NCBI GenBank assembly: GCA_964607285.1
Contig: CAZSJW010000008.1
Coordinates: forward strand, 1-63,375
DNA: 63,375 nucleotides
Reading direction: 5' to 3'
DNA from: an uncultured Pseudomonadales bacterium
GTDB taxonomy: Bacteria; Patescibacteriota; Microgenomatia; UBA1400; PJMF01
Under the pieces are notes generated by a model. It ran no database searches, was not told the DNA's origin, and saw only the letters and a program-made list of their open reading frames with translations. Made by a program: the position numbers and the translations under genes. This document shows, one piece after another, positions 2,313-28,070 of the stretch (the first letter of the stretch is position 1; each line of letters starts with the position of its first letter).

Positions 2313-3482
2313 TTAATACGGGAAGAACTCTGCCTGGCGGCTATCGCTAAAGAAGCTTATGATCTTCCATCGCTTGTAATCCAAAACTCCAAGCTCATCC
2401 TTCGAGATGTTGTAAAGTCCCAGGTTTATAAACAATTGCTCGGGTGCTGCACCTGTGCCAGTACCTTGAAAGTCTTTAAAAACCACACGGACCTTGGCAG
2501 AATACACACCGTTGACCGTCCGAACATCTGTTTTAACTACTTCCCAAGAATATCGAGCAATATCTGGAACGCCGAGCATGCCTAAGAATTGACCATAATC
2601 AGTGGGCGTGACCTTAGCTTTAAACTCTGGCGAGAGCTGTTCAATCGCCTCAGCATAGTTACCAAATCGCATGCTTCCTATGTGCTGTTCGACTGCCACA
2701 CGAGCTGCGTTTTGGAAGCGCGTGTCGTAGACAGGCACAATTGCATACGACGAACCAGCTGGAGGAGCAGATACCTCTGACAATCGCTGCCAGCTAAGGT
2801 CGTTCTGCGCCGTTTGAGCTGGAGGTGCGGCAGCAGGTGGAGTTTGTACTACCGGCTGTTGAGGAGCAGGCTCATTCATAGCACCTGTATCAACAGCTGC
2901 TGGTGCAGTCTTTGGTGGAGCATCATAGTCCATACCAATTTGCGCACATGGCGAGTCTTCGCATGATGAATCGGAATCACCGACTACTTCGATTAATCTA
3001 ACCCGCCAGTTTCCATACTCGGTAGTCAAAGAAAATCGCATGTCCTGCGTTTCTCCAGTTTTTCCCGTCAAACGAATAACAAACATACCCTGATCAGTCA
3101 AGTCAGTATCCCGAACATATACGGATTTTTGAGTAACTTTGTATGGAATATCTGCGCTGACTAATCCCAAGTTTTCGGCAAATTCCTGATACTCCGCCTG
3201 AGTAGCGTCAGTTTTGAATCCCGCGGTGGTTTGAGCATATGCTCCTGTGAAATCTTGGCGGCGCAATGTAGCAATATGTTGCTTAAGGAACTGTGCTGCA
3301 ACATACCCAGGCGTAGTGGTATAGTAATATCCACCACCCACTGCTAGCAATAGTGCTACCAACATACCACCTAGTATAAGAGGTAGGGATTTTGTTGAAG
3401 ACTGGACTGGTCCAACTTGTGGTTGAGCTTGATCAAACCCTGCATCTGAACTCTGAGCATGTGGCGTTGTATGAGTATTCAT
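2313..3482 (-). CDS. membrane-anchored hypothetical protein with two tandem NTF2-like (DUF4864-like) modules joined by a Pro/Ala/Gln-rich linker
   Basis: 389-aa ORF with one TM helix (LPLILGGMLVALLLAVGGGYYY). The two halves share a pattern: ..AEYQEFAENLGLV.. versus ..TDYGQFLGMLGVP... Linker is PAPQQPVVQTPPAAAPPAQTAQ. Confidence 0.5.
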   Translation of the reverse strand: MNTHTTPHAQSSDAGFDQAQPQVGPVQSSTKSLPLILGGMLVALLLAVGGGYYYTTTPGYVAAQFLKQHIATLRRQDFTGAYAQTTAGFKTDATQAEYQEFAENLGLVSADIPYKVTQKSVYVRDTDLTDQGMFVIRLTGKTGETQDMRFSLTTEYGNWRVRLIEVVGDSDSSCEDSPCAQIGMDYDAPPKTAPAAVDTGAMNEPAPQQPVVQTPPAAAPPAQTAQNDLSWQRLSEVSAPPAGSSYAIVPVYDTRFQNAARVAVEQHIGSMRFGNYAEAIEQLSPEFKAKVTPTDYGQFLGMLGVPDIARYSWEVVKTDVRTVNGVYSAKVRVVFKDFQGTGTGAAPEQLFINLGLYNISKDELGVLDYKRWKIISFFSDSRQAEFFPY

Positions 3483-3530
3483 TTCTCCTTTTAGTACGCG
3501 TATACGATGAATAGTTTGTACAGTGTTACT

Positions 3531-4259
3531 TTATACATATACACCAAAAACTTGCAATATACCCAATACACCGTGAATAATTCCAAGTATGACCGTAACC
3601 CACACAAAATACTTATGGATTGCGGTCCATGGCAAATGCGTTCCTGCAGCATCAAGTGGATCACTTCCAATTTTTGATCCCGTCCATGGCAACCTAAGCT
3701 TTGCCCAAGGCATTGCAAAGCAGGTAGCAAATGTCAGCACAAAAAACACCCCCATAACTATGCCTGTCCAGCCAAGTATAGAAATGTCTAAAAATTGAAT
3801 TCTTCCTGTATACCATGGCTTTTGTGCTATCTGGGCTTCGTCCTCTGCTAATCCGGACCATGCAGCTTTTTCTGAGGCAGGTACCATAGCATCATCACCG
3901 AGTGGTGCTGCAACTTCAGCCGTTGGTTCGGCAGTGATACCCTCTAGCGTCCCAATTTGGGTAAACCCCGCAAACACCTCCGGCCCGTGTGGTGCTTCCG
4001 CCATGTTAGCGGTCAGATCAATACCAGCTTTCAGACCAAAGTGTTCACCCAGCTTCCAGAGTTTGCTATCGGTCACGTCGTACACTTTGCCCTCATACGC
4101 TGTGTAGGCTTTTCGGCCGTCTTTGCCGTCATATTTGTCTAGTTCCTCAACTGTGAAAACTGTACCCTGCGCAAATGCACTAGTGACTGCAAAAACTCCA
4201 AGCAGCACAAAGAGCACTAAACCACTAAGTAGTTTTTCAAACTGATTTCTTCTAAACAT
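3531..4259 (-). CDS. cytochrome b5-like heme/steroid-binding domain membrane protein
   Basis: 242-aa ORF with a signal-like N-terminus. The FTVEELDKYDGKDGRKAYTAYEGKVYDVTDSKLW..GEH motif is characteristic of the cyt-b5/PGRMC-type domain. The C-terminal half contains several hydrophobic helices. Confidence 0.6.
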   Translation of the reverse strand: MFRRNQFEKLLSGLVLFVLLGVFAVTSAFAQGTVFTVEELDKYDGKDGRKAYTAYEGKVYDVTDSKLWKLGEHFGLKAGIDLTANMAEAPHGPEVFAGFTQIGTLEGITAEPTAEVAAPLGDDAMVPASEKAAWSGLAEDEAQIAQKPWYTGRIQFLDISILGWTGIVMGVFFVLTFATCFAMPWAKLRLPWTGSKIGSDPLDAAGTHLPWTAIHKYFVWVTVILGIIHGVLGILQVFGVYV

Positions 4260-4277
4260 ACATGCCTTAGATGCTAC

Positions 4278-5255
4278 TTATTCTTCGACAGGTTCCACAC
4301 CTCGATCGCCAAAGGGAATTAAATACACAACGTCTTCATTGGGATCAAGTTGCAGTGCTGCACCAACTTTGACTGCGTCAAAGCCTGCAGTTACCACAGT
4401 GCCCATGCCCAGCGACTCAATTTGCAAATAAATATTTTGCCCGATATGTCCACCTTCCAATAACGTACCAGTCACTGGATCGGCAGGGGAGAGCTTAGCC
4501 ATCTTGGCATAACTTGCAGCCAAGGCTATTACTGCAGGAGCTTTTTGGGAGTTATCCTGGACACCTGCAGCTGTCAAAACATCTCCAGCATTTGCCACAC
4601 CGATATACTCAACGGAATGAGTTGACGGATTATAGCGATACAGTCCAGGTTCCAAACCCGTCACATTGCGAACTACCAAATATGCAGTGAATGGATACGC
4701 GCCTCGAGCAGATGGTGCGGTGCGGTGCCCTGCATCGTCAGTCACGCCTTGGGCTGACCAGAGTACCTGCGAGACTTGCTGCAGTGTCAATGGAGTTTCT
4801 GCATAGGCTCGACGACTCCTGCGAGTTGCCAGCGCTGCTTCGACCGAAAGTTTGCCTGCCAAGTTAGGCTGGGGGAGGGCTGTGGTTTTGAGAACGGTTT
4901 TTTCTGCTGGGAGTTGGTAGTCTAGGTTCTTGGTCGGCGCTTCTGCTTCACTTGTAGTCATTTCTGCACCACCCGCTTTGAGCGCATCACGCTCGCGCAT
5001 AGTGACTACCCAGAGCGCAAAAAATAGTGTAGATAAACCAATCAAAATTACAACTATGAAAGAAAGCGTTTCCTTCTTGAACGGCATGCCGCTTTTCACG
5101 CAGCTGTCACAGTTTTTGCCATCGCAACCAGGATGTTGCGGTGAGTAGGTGGTTTGAACCACCGGCTGTGGAGTAGGCGCAGGAGTGCCTCCAGTTGATT
5201 GCAATGCGTTTGCGAATGGTGATGAGGATTTAGGCATACCTCTATTGAACAGCAT
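4278..5255 (-). CDS. SagB-type dehydrogenase / nitroreductase-fold protein with N-terminal Cys-rich segment and TM anchor
   Basis: 325-aa ORF. RRSRRAY...LSQVLWSAQGVT..., ...GAYPFTAYLVV...GLYRY... and ...LLEGGHIGQNIYLQ... fit the SagB/ThcOx nitroreductase domain pattern. N-terminus has HPGCDGKNCDSC followed by one TM helix. Confidence 0.65.
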   Translation of the reverse strand: MLFNRGMPKSSSPFANALQSTGGTPAPTPQPVVQTTYSPQHPGCDGKNCDSCVKSGMPFKKETLSFIVVILIGLSTLFFALWVVTMRERDALKAGGAEMTTSEAEAPTKNLDYQLPAEKTVLKTTALPQPNLAGKLSVEAALATRRSRRAYAETPLTLQQVSQVLWSAQGVTDDAGHRTAPSARGAYPFTAYLVVRNVTGLEPGLYRYNPSTHSVEYIGVANAGDVLTAAGVQDNSQKAPAVIALAASYAKMAKLSPADPVTGTLLEGGHIGQNIYLQIESLGMGTVVTAGFDAVKVGAALQLDPNEDVVYLIPFGDRGVEPVEE

Positions 5256-5967: not shown

Positions 5968-7209
5968 ATGTTACCCAAAACTATGCTTACGAGTTTGAAT
6001 TTTCTTGCCGATACATGGTGGTTTGCCGCCACCCGCATGACGCCTCTGCAAGTTCAACAACTAGCAAAACAGCGAGCCAAACAAGGTTTTACCGCTATCC
6101 AATTGGTTGCAGCTTTTCCTCCCGAAGTAGCCCCAACCTCGGCACAAGCTGCCAACACTTCCGGCTGGCCACTTGATAACAATAATCAGATTAATCAGTC
6201 GTACTTTGCAGACCTAGACAAAAAAATTGCCGCCATCATAGACGCAAAACTCACGCCAATCATCTATGGCAGCTGGGGCAATCACATCGATAGCATTGGG
6301 GTGGAAACCATGTGCCACATTTGGCAAGAGCTGATTGATCGCTATAGTTCTCTTGAAGTTGTCTGGTGCGTGTGTGGCGAAGTGGATCTGCCCCCTGCAG
6401 CAACAACTTTGCAAGGTTTTCCTTTCAACACGGTCATAGGCTCAATGCTGCGCAAGCTACTTCGACCGTTTAAAAATATGGTTGTTCTATCCACACATTG
6501 GCAAACAATTCGACTCGAAGAATGGAATCGAGTAGGGGAGTACATCGCAGCTCACGATCCGCATCACAGACCAATAATCATTCACCCCCACATGAACTCC
6601 ACAGCCAGACAGCTTTTCCCCCAAGCCCAGTGGCTCAGTGCCAACAGCATGCAATCAGGCCACTCACGATCACGGTTAGCATGGCTTCACAGAACTGCAA
6701 CTGCCGCACAAACAACAAGCGACCCCACAATCAACCTCGAACCCTGGTACGAAGGCATTGGTGGGGACTTTGGCTCACAGTTGCAACGCCAGGCATTTTG
6801 GGTGAGTATGCTCAGCGGCTGCCTAAGCTATGCGTATGGGGCACAGGGACTTTGGAACATGAATAAACCAGGCGAGTCGTTTCTTGGTCACTGGGGGAGT
6901 ACAGACTGGCGGACAGCAGCGGCAGCACCAGGAGCGGAGCAAATTGGAAAGGCTGCGACTTGGCTGCGTGAACAAAATTGGTTTGGAACACTACAGCCTG
7001 TGCCCCTAACCGCAGCTCAACTGGAGACAATTCTTGAACAACCCATTACAGCAATAACCCCAACAGGTGAACAGCTGCTGTACCTTCCAACGCACAGCAA
7101 CTTCACAAAACCAAACGCACGATTCTTCGATCCTACCACTATGCAAGAACTCCCCCAAACCGAGCTCAAAACCCCAGACTGCATCGTACTCTTACCTGAC
7201 TCGGTTTGA
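5968..7209 (+). CDS. DUF4038 / GH140-like glycoside hydrolase
   Basis: The track ORF starts at 5884 but would overlap the divergent gene at 5317-5916. The in-frame ATG at 5968 (MLPKTMLTSLNF) avoids this. LADTWWFAA...GFTAIQLV...SWGNHID...VVWCVCGEVD resembles the DUF4038 TIM-barrel family. Confidence 0.5.
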   Translation: MLPKTMLTSLNFLADTWWFAATRMTPLQVQQLAKQRAKQGFTAIQLVAAFPPEVAPTSAQAANTSGWPLDNNNQINQSYFADLDKKIAAIIDAKLTPIIYGSWGNHIDSIGVETMCHIWQELIDRYSSLEVVWCVCGEVDLPPAATTLQGFPFNTVIGSMLRKLLRPFKNMVVLSTHWQTIRLEEWNRVGEYIAAHDPHHRPIIIHPHMNSTARQLFPQAQWLSANSMQSGHSRSRLAWLHRTATAAQTTSDPTINLEPWYEGIGGDFGSQLQRQAFWVSMLSGCLSYAYGAQGLWNMNKPGESFLGHWGSTDWRTAAAAPGAEQIGKAATWLREQNWFGTLQPVPLTAAQLETILEQPITAITPTGEQLLYLPTHSNFTKPNARFFDPTTMQELPQTELKTPDCIVLLPDSV

Positions 7210-7226
7210 GATAGTATAATTGCCTG

Positions 7227-19412: not shown

Positions 19413-19562
19413 TTTTCGCCAATTAGTGATTGTGAGCCATCGATCCACTAACTAAAATGCAAGGATGACAATACAATCATATCCAAGAATGAAGATGAAA
19501 GCAAGCAATTAACAACTAAGCAGCTGAATTCTTGAATGAGGGTAAAGCAAACAAAAATTTGT

Positions 19563-20141
19563 TTAGAGGGTGAAGTCTTCCTGAAACTCAGAATTCATCT
19601 GCATATCATTATCGATAAGTCTTCGTAGATAAACTGATCTCGGGATTTTCTTTCTTCGTGAAATCCAATCTAAGTAATTACCAATTTTGGGAGAAATGAA
19701 GAAGTTAAATCTCACATCGGCACTATCACTTGCGTGTTCAAGTGCTAATTCTAGTATTTCTTCAAGTGTATGATTGTTATAACCCAAAACTTGTAGCTTC
19801 TCCAGGTTATACCCTTTTAGACTGTGCGGTGGTAAACCTAACTCTTCATTGTATAGAACAATCACGGGCTTCAACATATTTAGTGCTAAAGCAACTTCAT
19901 AACCAACACTCACGTCTGGTTTTGTCGTTTCAAATATAAGAATGTCTGCCTTCTTGATCCAAGACTGAGCCTTCTTTGCATATAGCTCAGATTCAGCAGG
20001 GGATTCTTTAATGATTTCATCTATCTTACGCTCCAGATAATGCTTTGTGACCAGCTCGTGACCTAATTTTTCAATTGTCGAAACAATCTTTTTGAAATCT
20101 TGTGAATTTCCATCGACCGCTGTCATGAAATGAACTTTCAT
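19563..20141 (-). CDS. DNPH1/Rcl-like (nucleoside 2-deoxyribosyltransferase-fold) domain fused to a C-terminal ribbon-helix-helix domain
   Basis: 192-aa ORF. MKVHF..., LVTKHY and WIKKADILIFETTKPDVSVGYEVALA..KPVIVLY parallel the DNPH1 motifs as I recall them. The C-terminal RFNFFISPKIGNYLDWISRRKKIPRSVYLRRLIDND is RHH-like. Confidence 0.55.
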   Translation of the reverse strand: MKVHFMTAVDGNSQDFKKIVSTIEKLGHELVTKHYLERKIDEIIKESPAESELYAKKAQSWIKKADILIFETTKPDVSVGYEVALALNMLKPVIVLYNEELGLPPHSLKGYNLEKLQVLGYNNHTLEEILELALEHASDSADVRFNFFISPKIGNYLDWISRRKKIPRSVYLRRLIDNDMQMNSEFQEDFTL

Positions 20142-20150
20142 TTTTGCCCC

Positions 20151-21317
20151 TTATCTTAGTTCTTCTATTGTTTGGTAAATTATTTTTTTCATCTTTACCT
20201 TCAACTTTTCTCTTTTATCCAATACGTGCTTTGTTCTCTCATTTGACAAATCTTCACTATACAACTTACTAAGCACATTCGATATGTAATGAAGATATCC
20301 AAACCTCATATTGTTTTCCTTTGCACCTTTCGCAAACTGACCTATTTCAGAATCAACAAAACTGAAATTTCTCATTCTTTCAAGCCACTCAGGAACCTCT
20401 AACATAACAGAGGCAGAGTTAACATGGTTCCCAGTGACAATATTGCACTTTTCAAGGTCAAAAATATTTTCCCACTCAATGCATTCACCATCCAAAAATG
20501 ACGTGTTACCAGAAACTACATCGACATTTGGCGTTAAATCTGCATCGATACCTCCAACTTTAGCTGTGAATATGATTGTTTCGAAGCCTTTAGAAGCAAG
20601 AACATTAACAATTCTTCTTAAAATATCCCCCCAGTAACTAAACTGAACAATTAAGAATGTTACCGATTTTGATCCAATCTTGCGTCTTGCCCAATACAAG
20701 CATTGATTTCCCTCCCATTTGTCAACTTCAGCAATTATTGGTAATCCGTAGCCAATGACTAAAACGTCTGACAAAGGAACATATCCTAGACCAATACTTT
20801 CAACTGCATCCCATGACTCACTATCATTTGGCAATGAATATGTTACATGTTCATAAGCTCGATCATTCATTGCAAGATATGATGCAACAAGAGAAGAGTA
20901 GTGCCTAACATAATCTGATCCAGGGAAACACTTAAGGTATAAAATATTATTTTCTATTTCAACTGTTGGCCTTTGCCAATTTGTTATTTTATCATTTTTC
21001 TCATTCTTCGATATTATGCAGTTTCTATCATAAGCTCCAACCACTCTTATTTCCTTGAAATTACATTCCTTAATTAAATGGTGGATTTTAATTTCAACGT
21101 ATCTTTCAAGTGACTGCCCCATGGTATGCATGGAATAGTTCCTCACAACGAAAGGTGAAAACTTGTGATAGTCATGGAAACGAATATGTAGGCTCTGCAT
21201 AAACAACAGCAACTCATCTATCTTAATTTCATACATCGGTATTATACCAGTATAGGATAGAAAATGGGAGAAAAACTCTCTCTTGAGAGATTCAAAACTT
21301 GGGATTATAATCCTCAC
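20151..21317 (-). CDS. two-domain protein: unknown N-terminal domain plus C-terminal PNP/UDP-phosphorylase (AMP-nucleosidase/MTAN)-fold domain
   Basis: 388-aa ORF. VTFLIVQFSYWGD..ASKGFETIIFTAKVGGID..VDVVSGNTSF..GNHVNSASVM..FVDSEIGQFA..FGYLHYISN follows the PNP_UDP_1 strand/loop order. The usual ME and SD motifs read SE and SN here. Confidence 0.5.
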   Translation of the reverse strand: MRIIIPSFESLKREFFSHFLSYTGIIPMYEIKIDELLLFMQSLHIRFHDYHKFSPFVVRNYSMHTMGQSLERYVEIKIHHLIKECNFKEIRVVGAYDRNCIISKNEKNDKITNWQRPTVEIENNILYLKCFPGSDYVRHYSSLVASYLAMNDRAYEHVTYSLPNDSESWDAVESIGLGYVPLSDVLVIGYGLPIIAEVDKWEGNQCLYWARRKIGSKSVTFLIVQFSYWGDILRRIVNVLASKGFETIIFTAKVGGIDADLTPNVDVVSGNTSFLDGECIEWENIFDLEKCNIVTGNHVNSASVMLEVPEWLERMRNFSFVDSEIGQFAKGAKENNMRFGYLHYISNVLSKLYSEDLSNERTKHVLDKREKLKVKMKKIIYQTIEELR

Positions 21318-21331
21318 AATTTATTTATACT

Positions 21332-21886
21332 ATGAATATTTACTTTACTGCTTCAGCTCGCAGCAAAATAAATTACTCACCAAATTTGACCCAAGTCTTC
21401 AGAAGCATTGAAAGATTAGGACATACAAATCTTGATGATTTCGTAATTAAGGTTGATGACAAGAAATTATATGACGGAAAATCATTCAAAATTGAAACAA
21501 TTTATAAAAACGCTATTAGACTTGTAACTTTGTCAGACATTATCATTCTAGAGGTATCTGAACCTAGTATATCAATGGGTTATGTGCTCAACACAGCATT
21601 AGAACTGGGTAAACCTGTAATTTTGCTTCATGTAAAAAATAAATACCCAATTTTCGTCTCTGGGATCACTAATCAAAATCTCCAAGTTATTGAATATTCT
21701 CTTAGTAACTTGCATATTCAACTTTCAACTGCTCTTTCTTGTGCCACGACAACAAAATTCACTCGATTTAATTTTTTTCTTTCCCCACTACATGATAATC
21801 ACTTGACTAAAATGGCTAGAATTCACCATGTACCTAAATCTGTATATTTGCGTGAACTTATAGAGAATGATATTAGCCATTGCTAA
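21332..21886 (+). CDS. DNPH1/Rcl-like domain fused to RHH domain (paralog of 19563-20141; predicted catalytic Glu replaced)
   Basis: 184-aa ORF. It has MNIYFTASA... and LSDIIILEVSEPSISMGYVLNTA..KPVILLH, so GYVL replaces GYEx. The C-terminal RFNFFLSPLHDNHLTKMARIHHVPKSVYLRELIEND is RHH-like. Its start is divergent from, and only 14 nt away from, the start of 20151-21317. Confidence 0.55.
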   Translation: MNIYFTASARSKINYSPNLTQVFRSIERLGHTNLDDFVIKVDDKKLYDGKSFKIETIYKNAIRLVTLSDIIILEVSEPSISMGYVLNTALELGKPVILLHVKNKYPIFVSGITNQNLQVIEYSLSNLHIQLSTALSCATTTKFTRFNFFLSPLHDNHLTKMARIHHVPKSVYLRELIENDISHC

Positions 21887-21989
21887 ACTTGCAGCTCAAC
21901 ATTCCTCTACATACTAGATACACATTGTATTATTATAAGACATAGATTATACTATTTCTAATTGTTTTTAAGAGTAATTTGTGCCTAAA

Positions 21990-23924
21990 ATGAAACCTGA
22001 AACACTACATATGTCTGGTAGTACACATTATAATTCTGAGTTTTTTAATCAAGGTGCCGTACTTCATGGCCGAAGGCGTGCTTTTCATGACCAAGCAAAA
22101 CTGAATGCAAGAATAAATCCTGAAGCTATGTTTTCAGTTTCTCAAGATTACGAAGGACAAGTTGTCACTATCGCTGACAGTTTAACTATCTTTGGTGACA
22201 TTAGTCCCGCTGTAGCTTGCCGCGTTTTACCTGGTTTGCAAACTGATTTAGTAGAAGCATATCGCAAAGCTCCACTGACCGAAAAACAGAGAAAAGAAAT
22301 TCCTAAAGCTGCTGTGGACATGGCAATTAAGTATGGAAAAAGAAGAGAGTTTTCTCCCTTGTTGATGCAGATCTTTGTGTTACTTATTATTGTCCAATTT
22401 ACAATTACCGCTTGCAGCGGTAGACCCACCCAAGTTAATGAGCCAGATTCAGAAAACTACGTTACAGAAGTAGCAGAAACACCTGAACCAACAAGTGAGT
22501 TGGTAGAACCACAGCCCAAAGTAACTACAGCAGTACAACCTCAATCCACTTCAACAGTACCTCTGATCGCCACAGCAGTCCCCAGCCCTGAAGCAACGCC
22601 CATTCCAATGGCAAATGGTGAAAGTTTGGCACTGGGTAGACCTGGATACGAGTTCGCGAAAGCCTTGGAGGCAGATGGAGTTATCAACGGCTTTGATTCT
22701 CTACAAGAACCAATTTACTCTGATCCTGTATCTAAGGTTTTTCTTGGCTTTAGAATTAATCCCGCTAAATATGAACCGCAGCTAGGTGGCAATGGTGGTA
22801 TGTTTCTGCTGCCAATGACTCGCCCAGTTACTGAGATGCAAGGTTTGACTGCTGAAGACTGGAAAGAGTGGTTTGCAGATACCAACACTAAATATGCAAT
22901 TCTAGGTAACCCTGACGGTTTACCTGAAGGAGAACCAACCATTCAACACGATGAGGTAAGAGTCTTTATAAACGAAGAAGGCTACATACGCGTTCAAGCA
23001 GTAGTCAATAACGAAGACGGAAGCACCACAATTGTAGGTGAGGTTCCCGTCACCGAGGAAGATGGTGTAGCCACTGGTAACTGGACACAGGTAGAGACAA
23101 ATTCAGAACACCCTTGGGCTATTACAAACCCAGAAACTGAATCTCCGCTTGATGCTTTGACTGAGGCTCCTGAAACTGCGATCCCAATTATCACGGCCCG
23201 AAATGTCGAAGGAGTACCACGAGAAACTATTCCACTACCCGTTGTAGAACAAATGACTGACATAGTAGCATTTTTGGAAACTTCTTATGGAACAGGTGCT
23301 ACTGGGCCAAATCCAAATTCTGATACTCAATATATCGATTATTCAAGGCTGCAGCTTTCTGGTCAGCAATTTAGGCAGCTACTGCTTCAAAATGGTTTTG
23401 ATGCAGAGTTATCTTCAGAAAACTATGAGAATAGCAGAGCACCCTTTGTAGATGTTGGTTTTATAGCAATCGGGTGGAGGAAAGTAGTGAATTTAAATGG
23501 AGACGAAAATACTATGGTTCTTTTAAGCACATGGGGTGTAGGACCAAATGGCGAACCACAGCTATTCCTAGTTGAAAAAATTATGAAACCTACCACTGTC
23601 ACTAAAGAGTGGGTTGGAGACTTGGGGAACTCAATAGTTGGGGGTATTACATTAAGTGATGCAAAAAGTGCATTGTTCGGAGAGAACTCAGATGGTTTAG
23701 TTTTTTATGGAATACCCACCAATAGCACAGGACAAGCTGGTGACCTAGTAAGAACAGAACTAACTTTTGCGCTCATGCCACTAAGTCAAGAATCCTCAGC
23801 AGATGAACGACCTTTTGACTTAAAAAGCCAAGAAAACATCTTAAATGAAATCCTTACAGGTGTTGCTCCTGTCAATGCTTTTGCAATAGAGTATTGGTCT
23901 ATACCAAAATATTCTGCCAACTGA
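21990..23924 (+). CDS. hypothetical membrane/lipoprotein-like protein
   Basis: ATG at 21990; the track uses GTG at 21981. An internal hydrophobic segment with a lipobox-like ITAC (LLMQIFVLLIIVQFTITACSG) lies ~125 aa in, so an alternative start at 22320 would make a classical lipoprotein. The rest is Thr/Pro/Glu-rich and then globular, with no recognisable motif. Confidence 0.4.
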   Translation: MKPETLHMSGSTHYNSEFFNQGAVLHGRRRAFHDQAKLNARINPEAMFSVSQDYEGQVVTIADSLTIFGDISPAVACRVLPGLQTDLVEAYRKAPLTEKQRKEIPKAAVDMAIKYGKRREFSPLLMQIFVLLIIVQFTITACSGRPTQVNEPDSENYVTEVAETPEPTSELVEPQPKVTTAVQPQSTSTVPLIATAVPSPEATPIPMANGESLALGRPGYEFAKALEADGVINGFDSLQEPIYSDPVSKVFLGFRINPAKYEPQLGGNGGMFLLPMTRPVTEMQGLTAEDWKEWFADTNTKYAILGNPDGLPEGEPTIQHDEVRVFINEEGYIRVQAVVNNEDGSTTIVGEVPVTEEDGVATGNWTQVETNSEHPWAITNPETESPLDALTEAPETAIPIITARNVEGVPRETIPLPVVEQMTDIVAFLETSYGTGATGPNPNSDTQYIDYSRLQLSGQQFRQLLLQNGFDAELSSENYENSRAPFVDVGFIAIGWRKVVNLNGDENTMVLLSTWGVGPNGEPQLFLVEKIMKPTTVTKEWVGDLGNSIVGGITLSDAKSALFGENSDGLVFYGIPTNSTGQAGDLVRTELTFALMPLSQESSADERPFDLKSQENILNEILTGVAPVNAFAIEYWSIPKYSAN

Positions 23925-23982
23925 GTTCATCTCAAATAGGATAGGAATTGCGTGTTAGTGTGAGTTGAGTTACACTGAATGC

Positions 23983-24552
23983 ATGTCACCCAATCGCCTG
24001 ATTGCATACGTGTTTGTTCTTACCCTGCTTGGCATCGGGTTTTATCTAATTTTTCAATCTCGAAAAAAGCAATTCTCAGAGTACCAAAGCCCATCTCCAG
24101 AGTTATTTGCAGAACGAACCTATACAAAACCAGTTGTACTGAGTGATAAAAAGTTGATCGCAGTTGAGGGAATTCTAGAGAAAGTTGAGAAAAGAACTAC
24201 TACTTTTACCACAAACCCTGAACAATATTTTTTATTACTCAGATCTGTCTCAGATCAGAACAAGACAATTGAGGTAGGACTCGGAGGAGAACAGCGAACC
24301 CTGGTATTGCAAGCACTCGGAAAAGAAACAGAGTCCAATGCCATCCTGCAACAAACACTAACCGTCACAGAAATACTCCCAAGACTTACAGTTGGTAAAA
24401 AAGTAACAGTGGAAGTTGACTTTACTACTCAGCCTGAAGCTGTCATCAATGAGTTCACCTCCAAGCTTAAAGCATTCGAGTCTGGTGAAGCATCTGAACT
24501 TAAAATCTTCTTTTTACTGCTTAGCAAGCTCTCACTTGAGACAACAATATGA
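23983..24552 (+). CDS. hypothetical membrane-anchored protein
   Basis: ATG at 23983 (MSPNRLIAYVFVLTLLGIGFYLIF) gives one TM helix. The stop overlaps the start of the giant downstream gene (ATATGA). Confidence 0.35.
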   Translation: MSPNRLIAYVFVLTLLGIGFYLIFQSRKKQFSEYQSPSPELFAERTYTKPVVLSDKKLIAVEGILEKVEKRTTTFTTNPEQYFLLLRSVSDQNKTIEVGLGGEQRTLVLQALGKETESNAILQQTLTVTEILPRLTVGKKVTVEVDFTTQPEAVINEFTSKLKAFESGEASELKIFFLLLSKLSLETTI

Positions 24553-27500
24553 GATCACTAATTGATTTTCTGAATATATCTGTTCTAAAGCAAGTCAGTA
24601 AAGCTTTGTTGATTATTGTTTGCTCTATTGCTGCAAGCGGTTTATTCATGAAACAAATCTCTGCCGCCCAATGCACAGAACCAGGCTGCTGTGGTTATAA
24701 CCTGAGAGTCTACCAATGGAGCTGTCAGCAAAGCACCACCCACTGTCAAAATTGGCAGGAGCCGGGGTGGCTGTGTCCAAATGGGGGACCATTATTTCCA
24801 GAGGATGAGGAATCTGAATGCAATGCCAACTGCCAAAATAGTACCTGCATCGAAGGCTGCGCAGGCGGCTGGGCAAATCAATGTGTCATTAGCCACTACG
24901 ACCAAGCCTGTACCGAAGACACAGCCGCAAACAGCTGTACAGCAGAGGTGAACCTCCAAACCTGCACCTCCCAAAACGGCGGCACCAGCTGCTCAGTGGC
25001 CACAACAGGTTCAGAAACCCGAGGGTGCTGGGTCACTAGCCCCCCAGATGCCACTCCAGACCCAAGTGCCCCCCCTCCAACAGGTGGTGGCACAACTTGT
25101 TGGCGCTGCTCAAACAACCAATGTGTAGAAAACACCACAAACGAACCCTGTGGCTGTGGTGCCTGTACCACTCTCACAGCTAGAAAAGCAATAATACTTT
25201 TTGAAGACACAAATGAAAATACAATCTGGGAACCAGACATAGGGGAGAAGCGTATTGTCTCAAACACCAATTGTCTTACGGGAAACACACAATATGTGCC
25301 AGGAGCAGAAATTAGAGTAGACGGCGAGGTGCTCCCACAAAATAACTGCGATATTATGGAAACTGAATATCCTGATGCATGTACAGACACCTATTCATGC
25401 ACATGGAATAGTGGGAGTTACTGGACTCCAAATGCCATTACAACCGTACTAAATCTTGAAGGTACTTGTTTTGATCAACAAAGTTGCAGCTGCGGTGGAG
25501 GATGTAACTGGCATTGGTATTGTCAATCTGAAAGTGCGGAGGGTGTTGTTTGTAGGCAAGATTCAAGATACTGTGAAAACTATGGTACATTCTCTCTCAG
25601 AAGTGGGCCAGTAAAAATTGCTTTAAAAGAAACAGGTCAACACAACGTCGTGCCGCAACTACCAGCAGGCTGGAGGCGTGCCGCTGGCAGTCCCACATAT
25701 GCCAACTGGACAACCACTAATGGCTCATGCGATGGCTTACTGCAAATTGGCATTGTCCCAGACAGAGAAAAGTGGTGTCGGATCGACCCACCCACTGCTG
25801 AAATGGCAAACACAGGTTCTGGTAACTCTACATCCTTCCGAGTAACTGGCTACTCAACACAGGCTGCTGAAAATGTTGGTGTGATTATTACCACAAAAAG
25901 TAGTACGGGAAATGCGCCTACCAGCCAAGCACTACCTTCCACTCCCCCAGGAATGGTTCACAACTCATACTTGGGCACCGATGGTATAACTCGTCACTAC
26001 TATCGCTTCAATAGTTCTGGATGTGTGACTGGAAGTGGAAATACCTGTCAATCGCATGTGGTGGCATCAGGACTACCTGTCGGACAATACTATGTCTTTT
26101 GTTCCCTAGATTCTCAGAACCCAATACGGTGCAGTGGCAACCCAAACTGTACCTATGAGGATCTGAATGGTCAAGTTAATTGTAATGCTAGTGGGTACCT
26201 CAGCTGTAGTGCCACAGGCGTATACAACGGCATCAACTACACCTATGACGACAATGCTGTACTAGATGTAGTCTGCGCACCATCCTGCACCCCAGCGTGT
26301 GGTCAACCCAATGGCTGCAATACAGGTGTAAACTGTGGTACCTCAAACACTGGTGCGCCACCCATTCCAGTACCAATGGCTAGCCAAAACATAACGGTAA
26401 ACATCAGTCAAGTAAAACACTTCGCCACCATTACCTGGACTGCAGGCACCTCAACCCCAACAAGTGGACCAACTTCCCAGTATGACTTAGTCATCGCACA
26501 ACAGGGTGGAGCGGTACAAACCCAAGCGCAAGCTGCCTTAGCCTTTGATTACTGTTTCAACACTGCCTGTCCAGCAGATGGTGCCACTACCTGTGACACA
26601 ACCTACAACGGCACCCCAATACGGTGCATGATTAATACAGCTACAGCTAACCCTAGCTTAAGTTACCAACCGCAAGCAACAATAGGAAATCGTATTCGCT
26701 TCTTTGCCCGTGCTACCAATCTTTCCTGCACAGCATTTACAGGAAGCTACATGAGCGCATTTAGCCTGGGTCGCGACTACACACTCGTTCAAAGTGTCAG
26801 TGGAAACTTCTACTCAGATGCAAATGCATCAGGCACACCGTTCTGTTCTGGAGTTGCAACTCCCACAACGCCACCTGGTGCAAACTCTGAGCTTGTTATT
26901 ACGCCACCAGTCTTAGGTTTCGGCACTGAGCTACAAGTCTCTGGGGACACCAACTACAGCATCAGCAACGTGCCATACAGCCCATCAAACTGGGTAGGCA
27001 ATAAATCCAGCCTTGAACTTGTCTTAGACAATGACCCAAGCATACCTCAAGCACAAGTTGTATGTTCGTGTCCAACAGACGGATCAAATGGTTGCACGTA
27101 TGTCGATTCTGTAAACTCACCACAGTCAAATCTGCACTTTTATCTGACTACTGTTGATCTTTCTACTGGACCTTGGTGGCAAACAGTCAACGGACTGCTG
27201 TATGCAGCACTTGGGGACATCATTTCAGTTATCCCTGAGGAATGTAAAGATGGCACCAGTATTGGAGCATGTGTACCGTATTTGATTACTCAAGATCCAA
27301 CCATAGTAAATGATTCCTTGCTTGAGCTCAGTGCGGGCATCCCAATGTCAGGTTCTGGAGATGTGGCGGGAGCTAGTAAAACAGTGTGGCTCACCCAGCG
27401 AAACCCACAAGCAAGAACTTCTGAAGCCACTGAACACACACAGCTTCCCAAAGAAGACTTTGCGTACTTCCAAAGCAAGGTTGATTATGCAAACTTGCAA

Positions 27501-28070
27501 ACACTGCCATCACTCATCGGACTCATTCAAGAACCTCCTGCAATCAAAACCTTCTACAAACATGCTGGTAATCTCCGTATCCAGCCTGGAGCTACACCAT
27601 GGCGTATAGCAGCAGGAGAGACTCTAGTCATCTTTGTCGAAGGTTCGCTCACCTTTGTGGGAGAGTTTTCAACTTCAGATATACTGACCCATGTAGAGCA
27701 GGGCGGTTTTCTAGCATTTATAGTTGATGATTCAATAATTTTTGACTCAAACGTTGGCAATGTTGACTCGTTCAATGCTAGCCCAACCATAGAGGGAGTG
27801 TACATCGCAGACAAAACGATCACTGTTGAAGCAGCCGCTGCAAGCAATGTCAGAGACAAGCACTTTGTGGGAGCAGGCACCTTCGTGGCATGGGTAGAGG
27901 ATGGGGTAGGGAACGGCTTTGTGTTCAATAGAAATTACGCAGATAGCAGTATTGGTGCACTAGAAAACAAGAGCTACCCAACGGAAACATTCATTTTCCG
28001 TCCTGACCTCACTAGTAACATGCCTGATGAACTAAAATCGACCAGTGTGTTCTGGCAAGAAGTGAATTAG
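24549..28070 (+). CDS. giant Cys-rich secreted protein, candidate pilus-associated adhesin
   Basis: 1173-aa uninterrupted ORF with a signal/anchor N-terminus (ALLIIVCSIAASGLF). There are dozens of Cys in CxxC-rich and T/N/G/S-rich context. The C-terminal ~300 aa is beta-rich (GETLVIFVEGSLTFVGEF..GGFLAFIVDDSIIF). Its stop lies 1 nt before a prepilin-like gene. Confidence 0.6.
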   Translation: MRSLIDFLNISVLKQVSKALLIIVCSIAASGLFMKQISAAQCTEPGCCGYNLRVYQWSCQQSTTHCQNWQEPGWLCPNGGPLFPEDEESECNANCQNSTCIEGCAGGWANQCVISHYDQACTEDTAANSCTAEVNLQTCTSQNGGTSCSVATTGSETRGCWVTSPPDATPDPSAPPPTGGGTTCWRCSNNQCVENTTNEPCGCGACTTLTARKAIILFEDTNENTIWEPDIGEKRIVSNTNCLTGNTQYVPGAEIRVDGEVLPQNNCDIMETEYPDACTDTYSCTWNSGSYWTPNAITTVLNLEGTCFDQQSCSCGGGCNWHWYCQSESAEGVVCRQDSRYCENYGTFSLRSGPVKIALKETGQHNVVPQLPAGWRRAAGSPTYANWTTTNGSCDGLLQIGIVPDREKWCRIDPPTAEMANTGSGNSTSFRVTGYSTQAAENVGVIITTKSSTGNAPTSQALPSTPPGMVHNSYLGTDGITRHYYRFNSSGCVTGSGNTCQSHVVASGLPVGQYYVFCSLDSQNPIRCSGNPNCTYEDLNGQVNCNASGYLSCSATGVYNGINYTYDDNAVLDVVCAPSCTPACGQPNGCNTGVNCGTSNTGAPPIPVPMASQNITVNISQVKHFATITWTAGTSTPTSGPTSQYDLVIAQQGGAVQTQAQAALAFDYCFNTACPADGATTCDTTYNGTPIRCMINTATANPSLSYQPQATIGNRIRFFARATNLSCTAFTGSYMSAFSLGRDYTLVQSVSGNFYSDANASGTPFCSGVATPTTPPGANSELVITPPVLGFGTELQVSGDTNYSISNVPYSPSNWVGNKSSLELVLDNDPSIPQAQVVCSCPTDGSNGCTYVDSVNSPQSNLHFYLTTVDLSTGPWWQTVNGLLYAALGDIISVIPEECKDGTSIGACVPYLITQDPTIVNDSLLELSAGIPMSGSGDVAGASKTVWLTQRNPQARTSEATEHTQLPKEDFAYFQSKVDYANLQTLPSLIGLIQEPPAIKTFYKHAGNLRIQPGATPWRIAAGETLVIFVEGSLTFVGEFSTSDILTHVEQGGFLAFIVDDSIIFDSNVGNVDSFNASPTIEGVYIADKTITVEAAAASNVRDKHFVGAGTFVAWVEDGVGNGFVFNRNYADSSIGALENKSYPTETFIFRPDLTSNMPDELKSTSVFWQEVN

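Follow-up and report, generated by a model that had tools for sequence, protein, structure and literature searches.

DNPH1, also called Rcl, is a 2'-deoxynucleoside 5'-phosphate N-hydrolase and splits dNMP into the base and deoxyribose 5-phosphate. In the rat enzyme Glu93 is the nucleophile and Tyr13 and Asp69 belong to the catalytic triad, with which the mutants Y24F, D80A and D69A/N in the PDB are consistent. Glu93 keeps the hydroxyls of the sugar in place, and the 5'-phosphate is bound by Ser87 together with Ser117' (PMC3834327). Among proteins of the purine nucleoside phosphorylase (PNP) fold, ATP nucleosidases are proven immune effectors (bioRxiv 10.1101/2023.01.24.525353). CPR (candidate phyla radiation) bacteria lack de novo nucleotide synthesis, and pili together with the Com system have been proposed as their nucleotide supply (PMC10633639). 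Here we analyse three neighbouring genes, called A, B and C, at positions 19563-21886 of a 63,375-nt stretch of contig CAZSJW010000008.1 (the window), where proteins related to both groups stand side by side in a type IV pilus locus. Our preferred reading, held tentatively, is that the trio is a lineage-fixed cassette for nucleos(t)ide processing and regulation in a Microgenomates/Pacebacteria-type CPR bacterium. That it is a mobile defence island is not supported.

A first-pass annotation, made from the DNA letters alone, had proposed the open reading frames (ORFs), the paralogy of A and C, and the three folds: nucleoside 2-deoxyribosyltransferase (NDT)/DNPH1, ribbon-helix-helix (RHH)-like and PNP. 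The ORFs are present where it had placed them, and the ORF check, alignment, structure models and profile matches bore out these assignments, the RHH-like one through matches under curated thresholds. The genes and their domains are as follows.

19563-20141, minus strand: gene A, 192 amino acids (aa)
19722-20141, minus strand: residues 1 to ~140 of A, DNPH1/Rcl-like Rossmann-type domain
19596-19721, minus strand: residues ~141-182 of A, RHH-like tail (RFNFFISP...PRSVYLRRLI)
20151-21236, minus strand: gene B, divergent protein of the PNP/MTAN fold, from an uncharacterised family; start position uncertain
20151-21317, minus strand: longest ORF of B, 388 aa with a GTG start
21332-21886, plus strand: gene C, 184 aa, built of the same two domains as its paralog A

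Two or three genes with effector-like folds in AT-rich DNA do not suffice for calling a defence island, and in this case it was positional conservation in relatives that decided the matter. The A/B(/C) set lies at the same place of the pilus locus in at least five diverged genomes of these ultrasmall CPR bacteria, with B 42-49% identical. The order, which recurs in four further loci from diverged genomes, is PilO-PilN-PilM, a gene of 265-295 aa, A, B, usually a C-type gene, and then large proteins. In the relative labelled L001 the pilus locus holds C', B and A, with B 49% identical; in L002 A is divergent from B and there is no C; L084 and L085, both from Ca. Pacebacteria, have the set in the pilus locus as well; and in L091, again in the pilus locus, B is 42% identical and is flanked by two NDT-type genes. 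The A ortholog of L084, P0081, has identical copies indexed in 101 collection blocks, and among 24 contigs examined 22 places have neighbours in common with L084. In the window, PilM/N/O-like genes are annotated on one side of the trio; on the other side the annotations of the window and its relatives show pilins, a prepilin peptidase, PilC and PilT/PilB-type ATPases. The first-pass annotation was thus right to place the trio within a type IV pilus locus, but the trio does not interrupt that locus, as its position is conserved in relatives.

The base composition of the trio had been taken as a sign of insertion. Its G+C content (GC) is 34.7% against a window mean of 43.8% (standard deviation 3%), in the lowest 1.2% of equal-sized windows, and it is the most AT-rich region of the window. 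The AT-rich stretch is therefore real, but the contrast with its surroundings had been overstated: GC is 31-37% inside and 42-48% in the flanks, and the value of about 60% given for 25.0 kb corresponds to a measured peak of 54% near 24.8-25.2 kb. The orthologs show the same dip, with 34.2 versus 43.1% in L001 and 32.4 versus 41.7% in L084. The dip is thus an old one; located mainly at codon positions 1-2, with GC at the third position just modestly lower, it mainly reflects amino-acid composition.

Other marks of a mobile element were also looked for. There is no tRNA gene near the trio, the only one in the window being at 50.5 kb; no direct repeats flank it; and no integrase or defence-type gene was identified among its annotated neighbours. 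The search for defence models that the first-pass annotation had proposed gave, in PADLOC-DB v2, no model for B (E<=1) or for C and only a spurious match of A to E1-E2 (E 0.017). No relatives of the A or B family were found on IMG/VR viral contigs, and BFVD gave generic giant-virus PNPs only; on these two results a viral origin was rejected. A mobile defence or genomic island was rejected on the conserved synteny, the common GC dip, the absence of a tRNA gene and flanking repeats, and the lack of relatives on viral contigs. Together with the PADLOC result, the same observations leave the AT-rich inserted conflict module, which the first-pass annotation had put forward, unsupported.

A and C are full-length paralogs with 31% identity (E 6e-27). 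In a phmmer search of the PDB, residues 3-127 of A matched the rat and human DNPH1/Rcl chains with an E-value of 4.5e-11. An AlphaFold model of A, built on 43 homologs, had a mean predicted local distance difference test (pLDDT) score of 89.5, and DNPH1 entries only were found among the 50 Foldseek matches listed for it. The template modelling (TM) score on the target was 0.70-0.87, and the root-mean-square deviation from the DNPH1 matches was mostly about 2-3 Å and reached 5.2 Å. Among family models, PF05014 of Pfam gives A 24.3 bits, under its cut-off of 28.8; NCBIfam has no family for C and for A only a chance-level match to ElaB (E 0.086), far under the cut-off; and PHROGs returned nothing for A, B or C.

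In the model the tail of A forms an extended segment followed by helices at residues 151-163 and 168-182. The tail is the most conserved part of the A family, with R144, F145 and F147 invariant and N146 nearly so (at least 90%). When tails were searched in isolation, 8 of 21 matched RHH_3 of Pfam (best E 2.5e-4, under the 21.6-bit cut-off) and 2 of 21 matched RHH_1, while RHH_3 on the whole of A gave an E-value of 0.012. The sole PDB profile match of the tail, a weak one (E 0.64), was the CopG regulator 7by2. It seems reasonable to call the tail an RHH domain, though its matches fall under curated thresholds. No description of an NDT-RHH fusion was found in the literature searched.

The residues of the Rcl active site were mapped through the HMMER alignment of A to the PDB chains, and the D69A/D69N variants in the PDB confirm the numbering.

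Rat Rcl Tyr13: His4 in A; Tyr, kept, in C
Rat Rcl Asp69: Ala58 in A; the column is unconserved throughout the family
Rat Rcl Ser87: Asp76 in A; Ser, kept, in C
Rat Rcl Glu93 (G-Y-E motif): Glu82, kept, in A; Val85, lost, in C

A is of a His-Asp-Glu ('HDE') subtype, as are all A orthologs beside B or in the pilus locus. Of the 14 C-type proteins aligned, none has the Glu; they read GYV, GFV, GYL, GFL or GYR instead. Because A retains the nucleophile, it may be able to cleave or transfer a deoxyribosyl group. Its Asp at the phosphate-binding Ser position suggests that the ligand is a nucleoside rather than a 5'-nucleotide, and an Asp in the phosphate pocket recalls the true deoxyribosyltransferases. 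On these residues A is not assignable as a DNPH1 orthologue. C has lost the nucleophile while keeping the rest of the pocket, and for this reason it is most likely a non-catalytic, ligand-binding RHH protein and a candidate ligand sensor.

Protein B matched no PDB chain by sequence, and the fold search alone succeeded. Its structure model (pLDDT 92.8, predicted TM score 0.91) matches structures of PfPNP, PNP, MTAP and MTAN in Foldseek with E-values of ~4e-11 over ~240 columns, at 13-16% identity; the TM score on the target is 0.62-0.68 for these enzymes of the nucleoside phosphorylase-I (NP-I) family. The fold runs across most of B, rather than being confined to the C-terminal ~190 aa as had been proposed. 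There is no NCBIfam family for B. PF01048 of Pfam (PNP_UDP_1) gives it 13 bits against a cut-off of 25.1 (E 0.069), and a precomputed PF01048 match exists in only 4 of 64 B homologs. Invariant in the family are the motifs EKNDK-NWQRPT, CFPG-DY-RHY, FVD[PS]EIG (FVDSEIG in the window), H-x-IS[ND]NL (LHYISN in the window) and EDLSNER. A local hhalign comparison with MTAN, in which the MTAN sequence was an approximate query, sets FVDSEIG against AVEMEAT, with the Glu kept, and LHYISN against VRAISD, with Asn for Asp; this alignment is weak (E 0.36). B most likely breaks or makes the N-glycosidic bond of a purine-type nucleoside or nucleotide.

The candidate starts of B are M28 at 21236, M40 at 21200, M63 at 21131, which is the database call and gives a protein of 326 aa, and the GTG at 21317. 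Homologs are ~345 aa long, and a 'PFVV..H[ST]MG' stretch common to them places the start at M28 or M40. Both observations, and a promoter-like site for C that falls inside the longest ORF, indicate that the 388-aa version in the first-pass annotation is probably over-extended at its GTG start. The divergent gap between B and C is accordingly ~95-131 nt, and not the 14 nt that had been given.

The family to which A belongs is large. Searched exhaustively, its profile matches 2667 proteins at E<=1e-3; at E<=1e-30 there are 264 clusters, almost all with a length of 185-195 aa and a match from end to end. The database names are those of Microgenomates, Pacebacteria, other Patescibacteria and a few archaea. 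Distant members have neither B nor pilus genes nearby. In L086 and L087 the order is recR-methyltransferase-A...cysS; in L088 it is SHMT-DHFR-thyA-recR-methyltransferase-NDT-thymidine kinase-A...cysS; and in L089 and L090 it is phosphoribosyltransferase-PfkB kinase-AdoHcyase-recR-radical SAM-A-cysS-NUDIX. Across 39 informative metagenomic loci, recR was found at 20, cysS at 17, thymidine kinase at 5, thyA at 3, PilM at 5 and B at 3, and the three loci with B are the closest relatives. Seen from B, none of 80 family loci from reference genomes had an NDT-RHH gene within 8 kb, in a scan that was dominated by actinomycetes and whose peptide pattern missed CPR B genes known from other look-ups. 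The first-pass annotation had asked whether the trio is conserved as neighbours across genomes; for A and B this is so in the near lineage only, at 3 of the 39 A-family loci and none of the 80 B-family loci, so that by its own standard its reading is half refuted. The A-B pairing is specific to one CPR sub-lineage, and the A family overall is found in nucleotide-salvage and housekeeping neighbourhoods. Given the synteny and these contexts, the RHH-regulated salvage cassette, which the first-pass annotation had mentioned as a sober alternative, fits better than its conflict module.

The residue pattern of C recurs in this wider family. Among 294 members the equivalent of Glu93 is E in 224 and hydrophobic or otherwise different in ~70, and the equivalent of Ser87 is S in 160 and D in 69; where the Glu is missing, the Ser is nearly always retained. 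At 15 of the 39 loci there are two or more NDT-RHH paralogs, up to six of them in tandem, and in such arrays copies with the Glu typically stand beside copies without it. The strand predicted to read DNA varies from copy to copy within arrays (RFNFFIS, RFNMMLS, RFTMILP, RMTVIMP). Arrays of active-looking and dead copies with a diversifying strand would be the pattern expected of paralogous regulators.

Two further observations concern the A family. Tandem arrays of 4-6 NDT-RHH paralogs lie at L114:1724-6570, L123:3291-7115, L112:5082-7635 and L099:3968-7774, and their Glu-less copies have L, M, I or Q at the Glu position. A MoaA-like radical SAM gene stands directly upstream of the A-family gene at L089:3810-4775 and L090:1027-1992; its product scores 144 bits, under the equivalog cut-offs, and has a weak viperin-like similarity. 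One of these two loci is labelled Bathyarchaeia, yet its context looks CPR-like.

The B family is uncharacterised, and the source names of its members, where given, are 'hypothetical protein'. Its distribution is patchy, across CPR, DPANN archaea, Actinomycetota, Verrucomicrobiia, Cyanobacteriota and others, at ~40% identity. At ~70 actinomycete loci the order is GTP cyclohydrolase I (FolE), QueD (PTPS), a QueE-like radical SAM protein, an unannotated protein of ~275 aa beside B, which we call u275, and B; then come a dTMP-kinase-like protein, DUF2797, a SAM methyltransferase and a NUDIX protein, with no QueC. This cluster looks like an undescribed pathway of 7-deazaguanine nucleotide or DNA modification, at the level of 7-carboxy-7-deazaguanine (CDG). 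In phages, pathways that go no further than CDG rely on DpdA3, a very divergent transglycosylase (PMC10516641). No component of phosphorylase type is mentioned in a genome-mining preprint of 2026 on deazapurine clusters. That u275 is an enzyme of the TGT/DpdA type was an idea prompted by an impression of similar motifs, and it is a lead only: the PDB profile search gave noise only, Pfam gave nothing, and the PHROG matches were to families of unknown function only (phrog_20335, phrog_19058). We searched the 63-kb window for FolE, QueD, QueE, u275, the kinase, DUF2797, NUDIX and CYTH, and found none of them.

The FolE-QueD-QueE-u275-B cluster is carried by Spirillospora sp. NBC_00431 (L083:7233-14506) and by ~70 further actinomycete loci among L008-L082. 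In L083 a phage-type integrase lies near the B cluster, at 3048-4520; this is one case only. A fusion of u275 and B, 605 aa long, is present in four DPANN genomes (Woese-/Pacearchaeota and another archaeon), at L003:7200-9017, L004:7203-9020, L011:7194-9011 and L016:7200-9014. In L003, L004 and L016 a dTMP-kinase-like gene precedes the fusion and a gene for a CYTH-domain protein follows it; a CYTH gene also comes after B in one Komeilibacteria genome. At L092:6354-8557 a B homolog lies in an apparent operon between a 221-aa unannotated gene, which overlaps its start, and a gene for an archaeal-type dUTPase/dCTP-deaminase. The homolog P0052, of 485 aa, is fused to a NUDIX domain. Another, P0062, comes from the assembly of a lichen fungus (Caloplaca ligustica) and could be contamination or a eukaryotic member.

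The intergenic regions of the trio contain the following signals.

20142-20150, minus strand: spacer between B and A, 9 nt, with a Shine-Dalgarno-like AAGGGG, ACTAAGATAAGGGGCAAAAATGAAAG
21237-21331: divergent B/C control region, with promoter-like sites on both strands
21283-21311, plus strand: promoter-like TTGAGA-17-TATAAT for C, inside the longest ORF of B
21249-21241, minus strand: extended -10-like TGgTATAAT for B, just upstream of the ATG of M28
21276-21289: palindrome CTCTC-n-GAGAG, overlapping the -35 of C

The spacer sequence confirms that A and B are 9 nt apart, as first annotated. No terminator-like site was seen between them, and B and A are very probably co-transcribed. Inverted repeats of 10 nt or more were absent from the divergent regions of the window, L001 and L084; L002 and L091 do have such repeats there, but the two sets are unrelated. 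When palindromes were enumerated in the intergenic DNA of 58 A-family loci (69 kb), A/T runs came up and otherwise only a few motifs, each shared by 3-4 loci. Because no operator common to the relatives was found, we only infer a regulatory role for the B/C region. Two of the enumerated palindromes, CACTGT-N3-ACAGTG (with overlapping forms) and TCCGCC-N4-GGCGGA, were found in 4 loci each, with shuffled controls at 3 or fewer; the loci may be near-duplicates, or the sites terminators.

On the other side of A, the gap to the PilX_N-like gene that precedes pilM carries the promoter-like motif TATGATTGTATT, in the window at 19449-19562 (minus strand) and in L002 at 7074-7217 (minus strand). Its promoter-like TATGAT is conserved between the window and L002, which suggests that the pilM/N/O genes have a promoter of their own downstream of A. 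Co-transcription of A with pilM/N/O was considered and is not required, as the gap has this conserved TATGAT. Directly to the right of the trio, at 21981-28070, the window encodes proteins of 647 and 195 aa without a Pfam match and a Cys-rich protein of 1173 aa. Since the same position in L001, L002 and L091 is also occupied by large unannotated proteins, the large ones here are probably pilus-associated surface proteins.

Our tentative picture of a nucleos(t)ide-processing and regulation cassette draws on the observed folds, residue states, operon spacing, synteny and family contexts. From scavenged (deoxy)nucleosides or nucleotides, B and A would release free bases and sugar phosphates. C, and possibly A, would form dimers that bind the DNA of the divergent B/C promoters through their RHH tails, and perhaps other sites too, and expression would be adjusted to whichever nucleos(t)ide occupies the NDT pocket. 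PutA, NikR, PurR and PyrR are enzyme-derived or enzyme-fused regulators with a similar logic. The partners of B elsewhere are nucleotide enzymes (dTMP-kinase-like, dUTPase/dCTP-deaminase, NUDIX, CYTH and FolE/QueD/QueE proteins). The substrates, the DNA binding and the regulatory role with its targets are what this picture would predict. It would also allow a link to pilus-mediated DNA uptake; the tie of the trio to the pilus is only positional.

Several results weigh against this picture. The RHH matches all lie under the curated cut-offs of Pfam, and no conserved operator was found although the beta-strand of A-type tails is invariant. Many A-family genes are internal to operons, where they lack an intergenic stretch of their own upstream, and simple autoregulation is hard to reconcile with this. 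A lacks the equivalents of Tyr13 and Asp69 of Rcl, and because of this it too may be inactive. In B, the position that a weak alignment pairs with the catalytic Asp of MTAN/PNP carries Asn in 79 of the 86 members. The company that B keeps elsewhere suggests 7-deazaguanine chemistry, yet the window has none of those partner genes. Finally, transposon sequencing in one Saccharibacterium gave no support for Com-mediated DNA uptake as a nucleotide need (PMC10633639).

A conflict or toxin-antitoxin-like module would explain the same genes differently: A and/or B would be nucleotide-depleting effectors whose activity is released by phage infection, and C a dead paralog that restrains A by heterodimerising or represses the operon through its RHH domain. 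RHH domains are common in antitoxins, and PNP-fold ATP nucleosidases act in immunity. The recurrence and diversification of Glu-retaining/Glu-less pairs and arrays, the patchiness of B across phyla with an integrase near it in one actinomycete, and the AT-richness of the trio would also fit. We nevertheless consider this module unlikely, since its members would hardly be expected at a pilus-locus position that is fixed across genomes whose B proteins are 42-49% identical, with a GC dip that is old and stems from amino-acid composition. PADLOC has no matching model for B or C and a spurious one for A; PNP_UDP_1, with which the Cap17 clade was collected, gives B an E-value of only 0.069; the trio has neither a sensor domain nor a signalling partner; no relative of either family was found on viral contigs, and island hallmarks such as a tRNA gene or flanking repeats were not found; and the A family is mostly in recR/cysS/thymidine kinase/thyA contexts. 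At the opposite extreme, the three proteins may be plain metabolic enzymes or subunits with no part in regulation, the tail being an element for oligomerisation or partner binding and not a DNA-binding RHH. The sub-threshold RHH matches, the lack of an operator and the many operon-internal A genes all agree with this, as does the near invariance of the A-type tail, which is unusual for an element that reads DNA at differing operators. Against it, the strand-helix-helix order, with R-x-N on the predicted strand and a PRSVYLR..LI helix, repeatedly matches RHH models, and the one PDB match of the tail is CopG. C-type copies are conserved despite their lost nucleophile, and the strand residues diversify among array paralogs. 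This explanation, too, we hold to be improbable.

The contexts of B raise another candidate, a modified-base pathway centred on B, in which a base-exchanging partner acts on 7-deazaguanine-type or other modified purines and A takes the place of u275 in CPR bacteria. The task of the trio would in that case be to salvage a modified base or to put one in place, as in queuosine/preQ-type salvage or in DNA modification. NDT-fold enzymes (PF05014) are base-exchange enzymes, as this would need, and 7-deazapurines are poor substrates for PNP chemistry that protonates N7, which speaks against it. The ~70 actinomycete clusters without QueC, where B stands among FolE, QueD, QueE, u275, the kinase, DUF2797, the methyltransferase and NUDIX, favour such a pathway, as do the u275-B fusions of four DPANN genomes and the use of a very divergent DpdA3 by phage pathways stopping at CDG (PMC10516641). 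However, FolE, QueD, QueE, u275, the kinase, CYTH and NUDIX are undetected in the 63-kb window, u275 is not shown to be TGT/DpdA-like (its PDB profile search was negative and its PHROGs are of unknown function), and most A-family genes occur without B. We regard this pathway as quite improbable for the trio. A bolder version makes the B family the core of an undescribed nucleobase-exchange system, always with a transglycosylase-type partner, so that the trio swaps or removes DNA bases. The partner would be u275 in Actinomycetota and DPANN, beside the 7-deazaguanine genes, and the NDT-fold A in CPR. The RHH tail of A would tether a deoxyribosyl-transferase-type active site to DNA, either the cell's own or DNA taken up via the adjacent pilus, and the Glu-less C would be a specificity or inhibitory subunit. 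This is a long shot, and far from what we would expect.

The cassette for processing and regulation therefore remains the reading we prefer. To our knowledge CPR bacteria (Patescibacteria) cannot make nucleotides, and we know of very few of their regulators. The NDT-RHH family is a candidate for how they sense and manage scavenged nucleosides, and it would be a new example of enzymes evolving into regulators. Because of its links to ~70 actinomycete 7-deazaguanine clusters and its fusion to u275 in DPANN, the B family is a concrete target for a missing step in deazapurine or modified-nucleotide metabolism. The conserved pseudo-enzyme partner, the size and paralog behaviour of the NDT-RHH family and the 7-deazaguanine link of B are the points of continuing interest.

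Compared with DNPH1/Rcl and the NDT enzymes (PF05014), the N-terminal 140 aa of A and C have the same fold, A has the Glu of the G-Y-E motif and C keeps the equivalents of Tyr13 and Ser87. They differ in A at three positions, with His at that of Tyr13, Ala at that of Asp69 and Asp at that of Ser87, and in C by a Val at that of Glu93, and the Pfam scores are under the gathering threshold; nor do the known DNPH1/NDT enzymes have the C-terminal RHH-like tail. With the regulators PutA, NikR, B. subtilis PurR and PyrR, the trio would have in common a small-molecule domain derived from an enzyme and joined to a DNA-binding module, which is predicted here, and the coexistence of copies that look catalytically competent with others that look dead. 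Here, in contrast, the sensor fold is NDT/DNPH1, the RHH of A and C is C-terminal and no operator was found.

For B, the best structural matches are NP-I enzymes: MTA/SAH nucleosidase, hexameric PNP/MTAP and AMP nucleosidase. In the weak local alignment, FVD[PS]EIG and H-x-IS[ND] fall opposite the E174 and D197 motifs of MTAN. B is nonetheless only 13-16% identical to these enzymes and most members have Asn for the catalytic Asp, by a weak alignment; the N-terminal EKNDK-NWQRPT and CFPG-DY-RHY and the C-terminal EDLSNER motifs are the family's own. B has the PNP/MTAN fold of Cap17 (CBASS) and DtcC (Detocs), which act on the N-glycosidic bonds of nucleotides (bioRxiv 10.1101/2023.01.24.525353). 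Unlike them, it lacks a sensor or receiver domain as well as a signalling partner (the components considered being a SAVED/TPALS domain, a CD-NTase, a histidine kinase and a receiver), and it has no PADLOC match and only an E-value of 0.069 to PF01048; its locus is fixed and not one of defence, with pilus genes and NDT-RHH paralogs as neighbours, and in other genomes biosynthetic or nucleotide-handling enzymes accompany it. The actinomycete and DPANN contexts of B resemble the DpdA3-type deazaguanine pathways (Cui et al. 2023, PMC10516641) in having FolE, QueD and QueE without QueC and in u275, which is of DpdA-like size. The window differs in having none of these genes, and that paper mentions no PNP-fold component. 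Taken together, the folds of the trio are known; the enzyme-plus-RHH family and the branch of the PNP fold are new, in that both are undescribed, and the trio is not a new kind of system.

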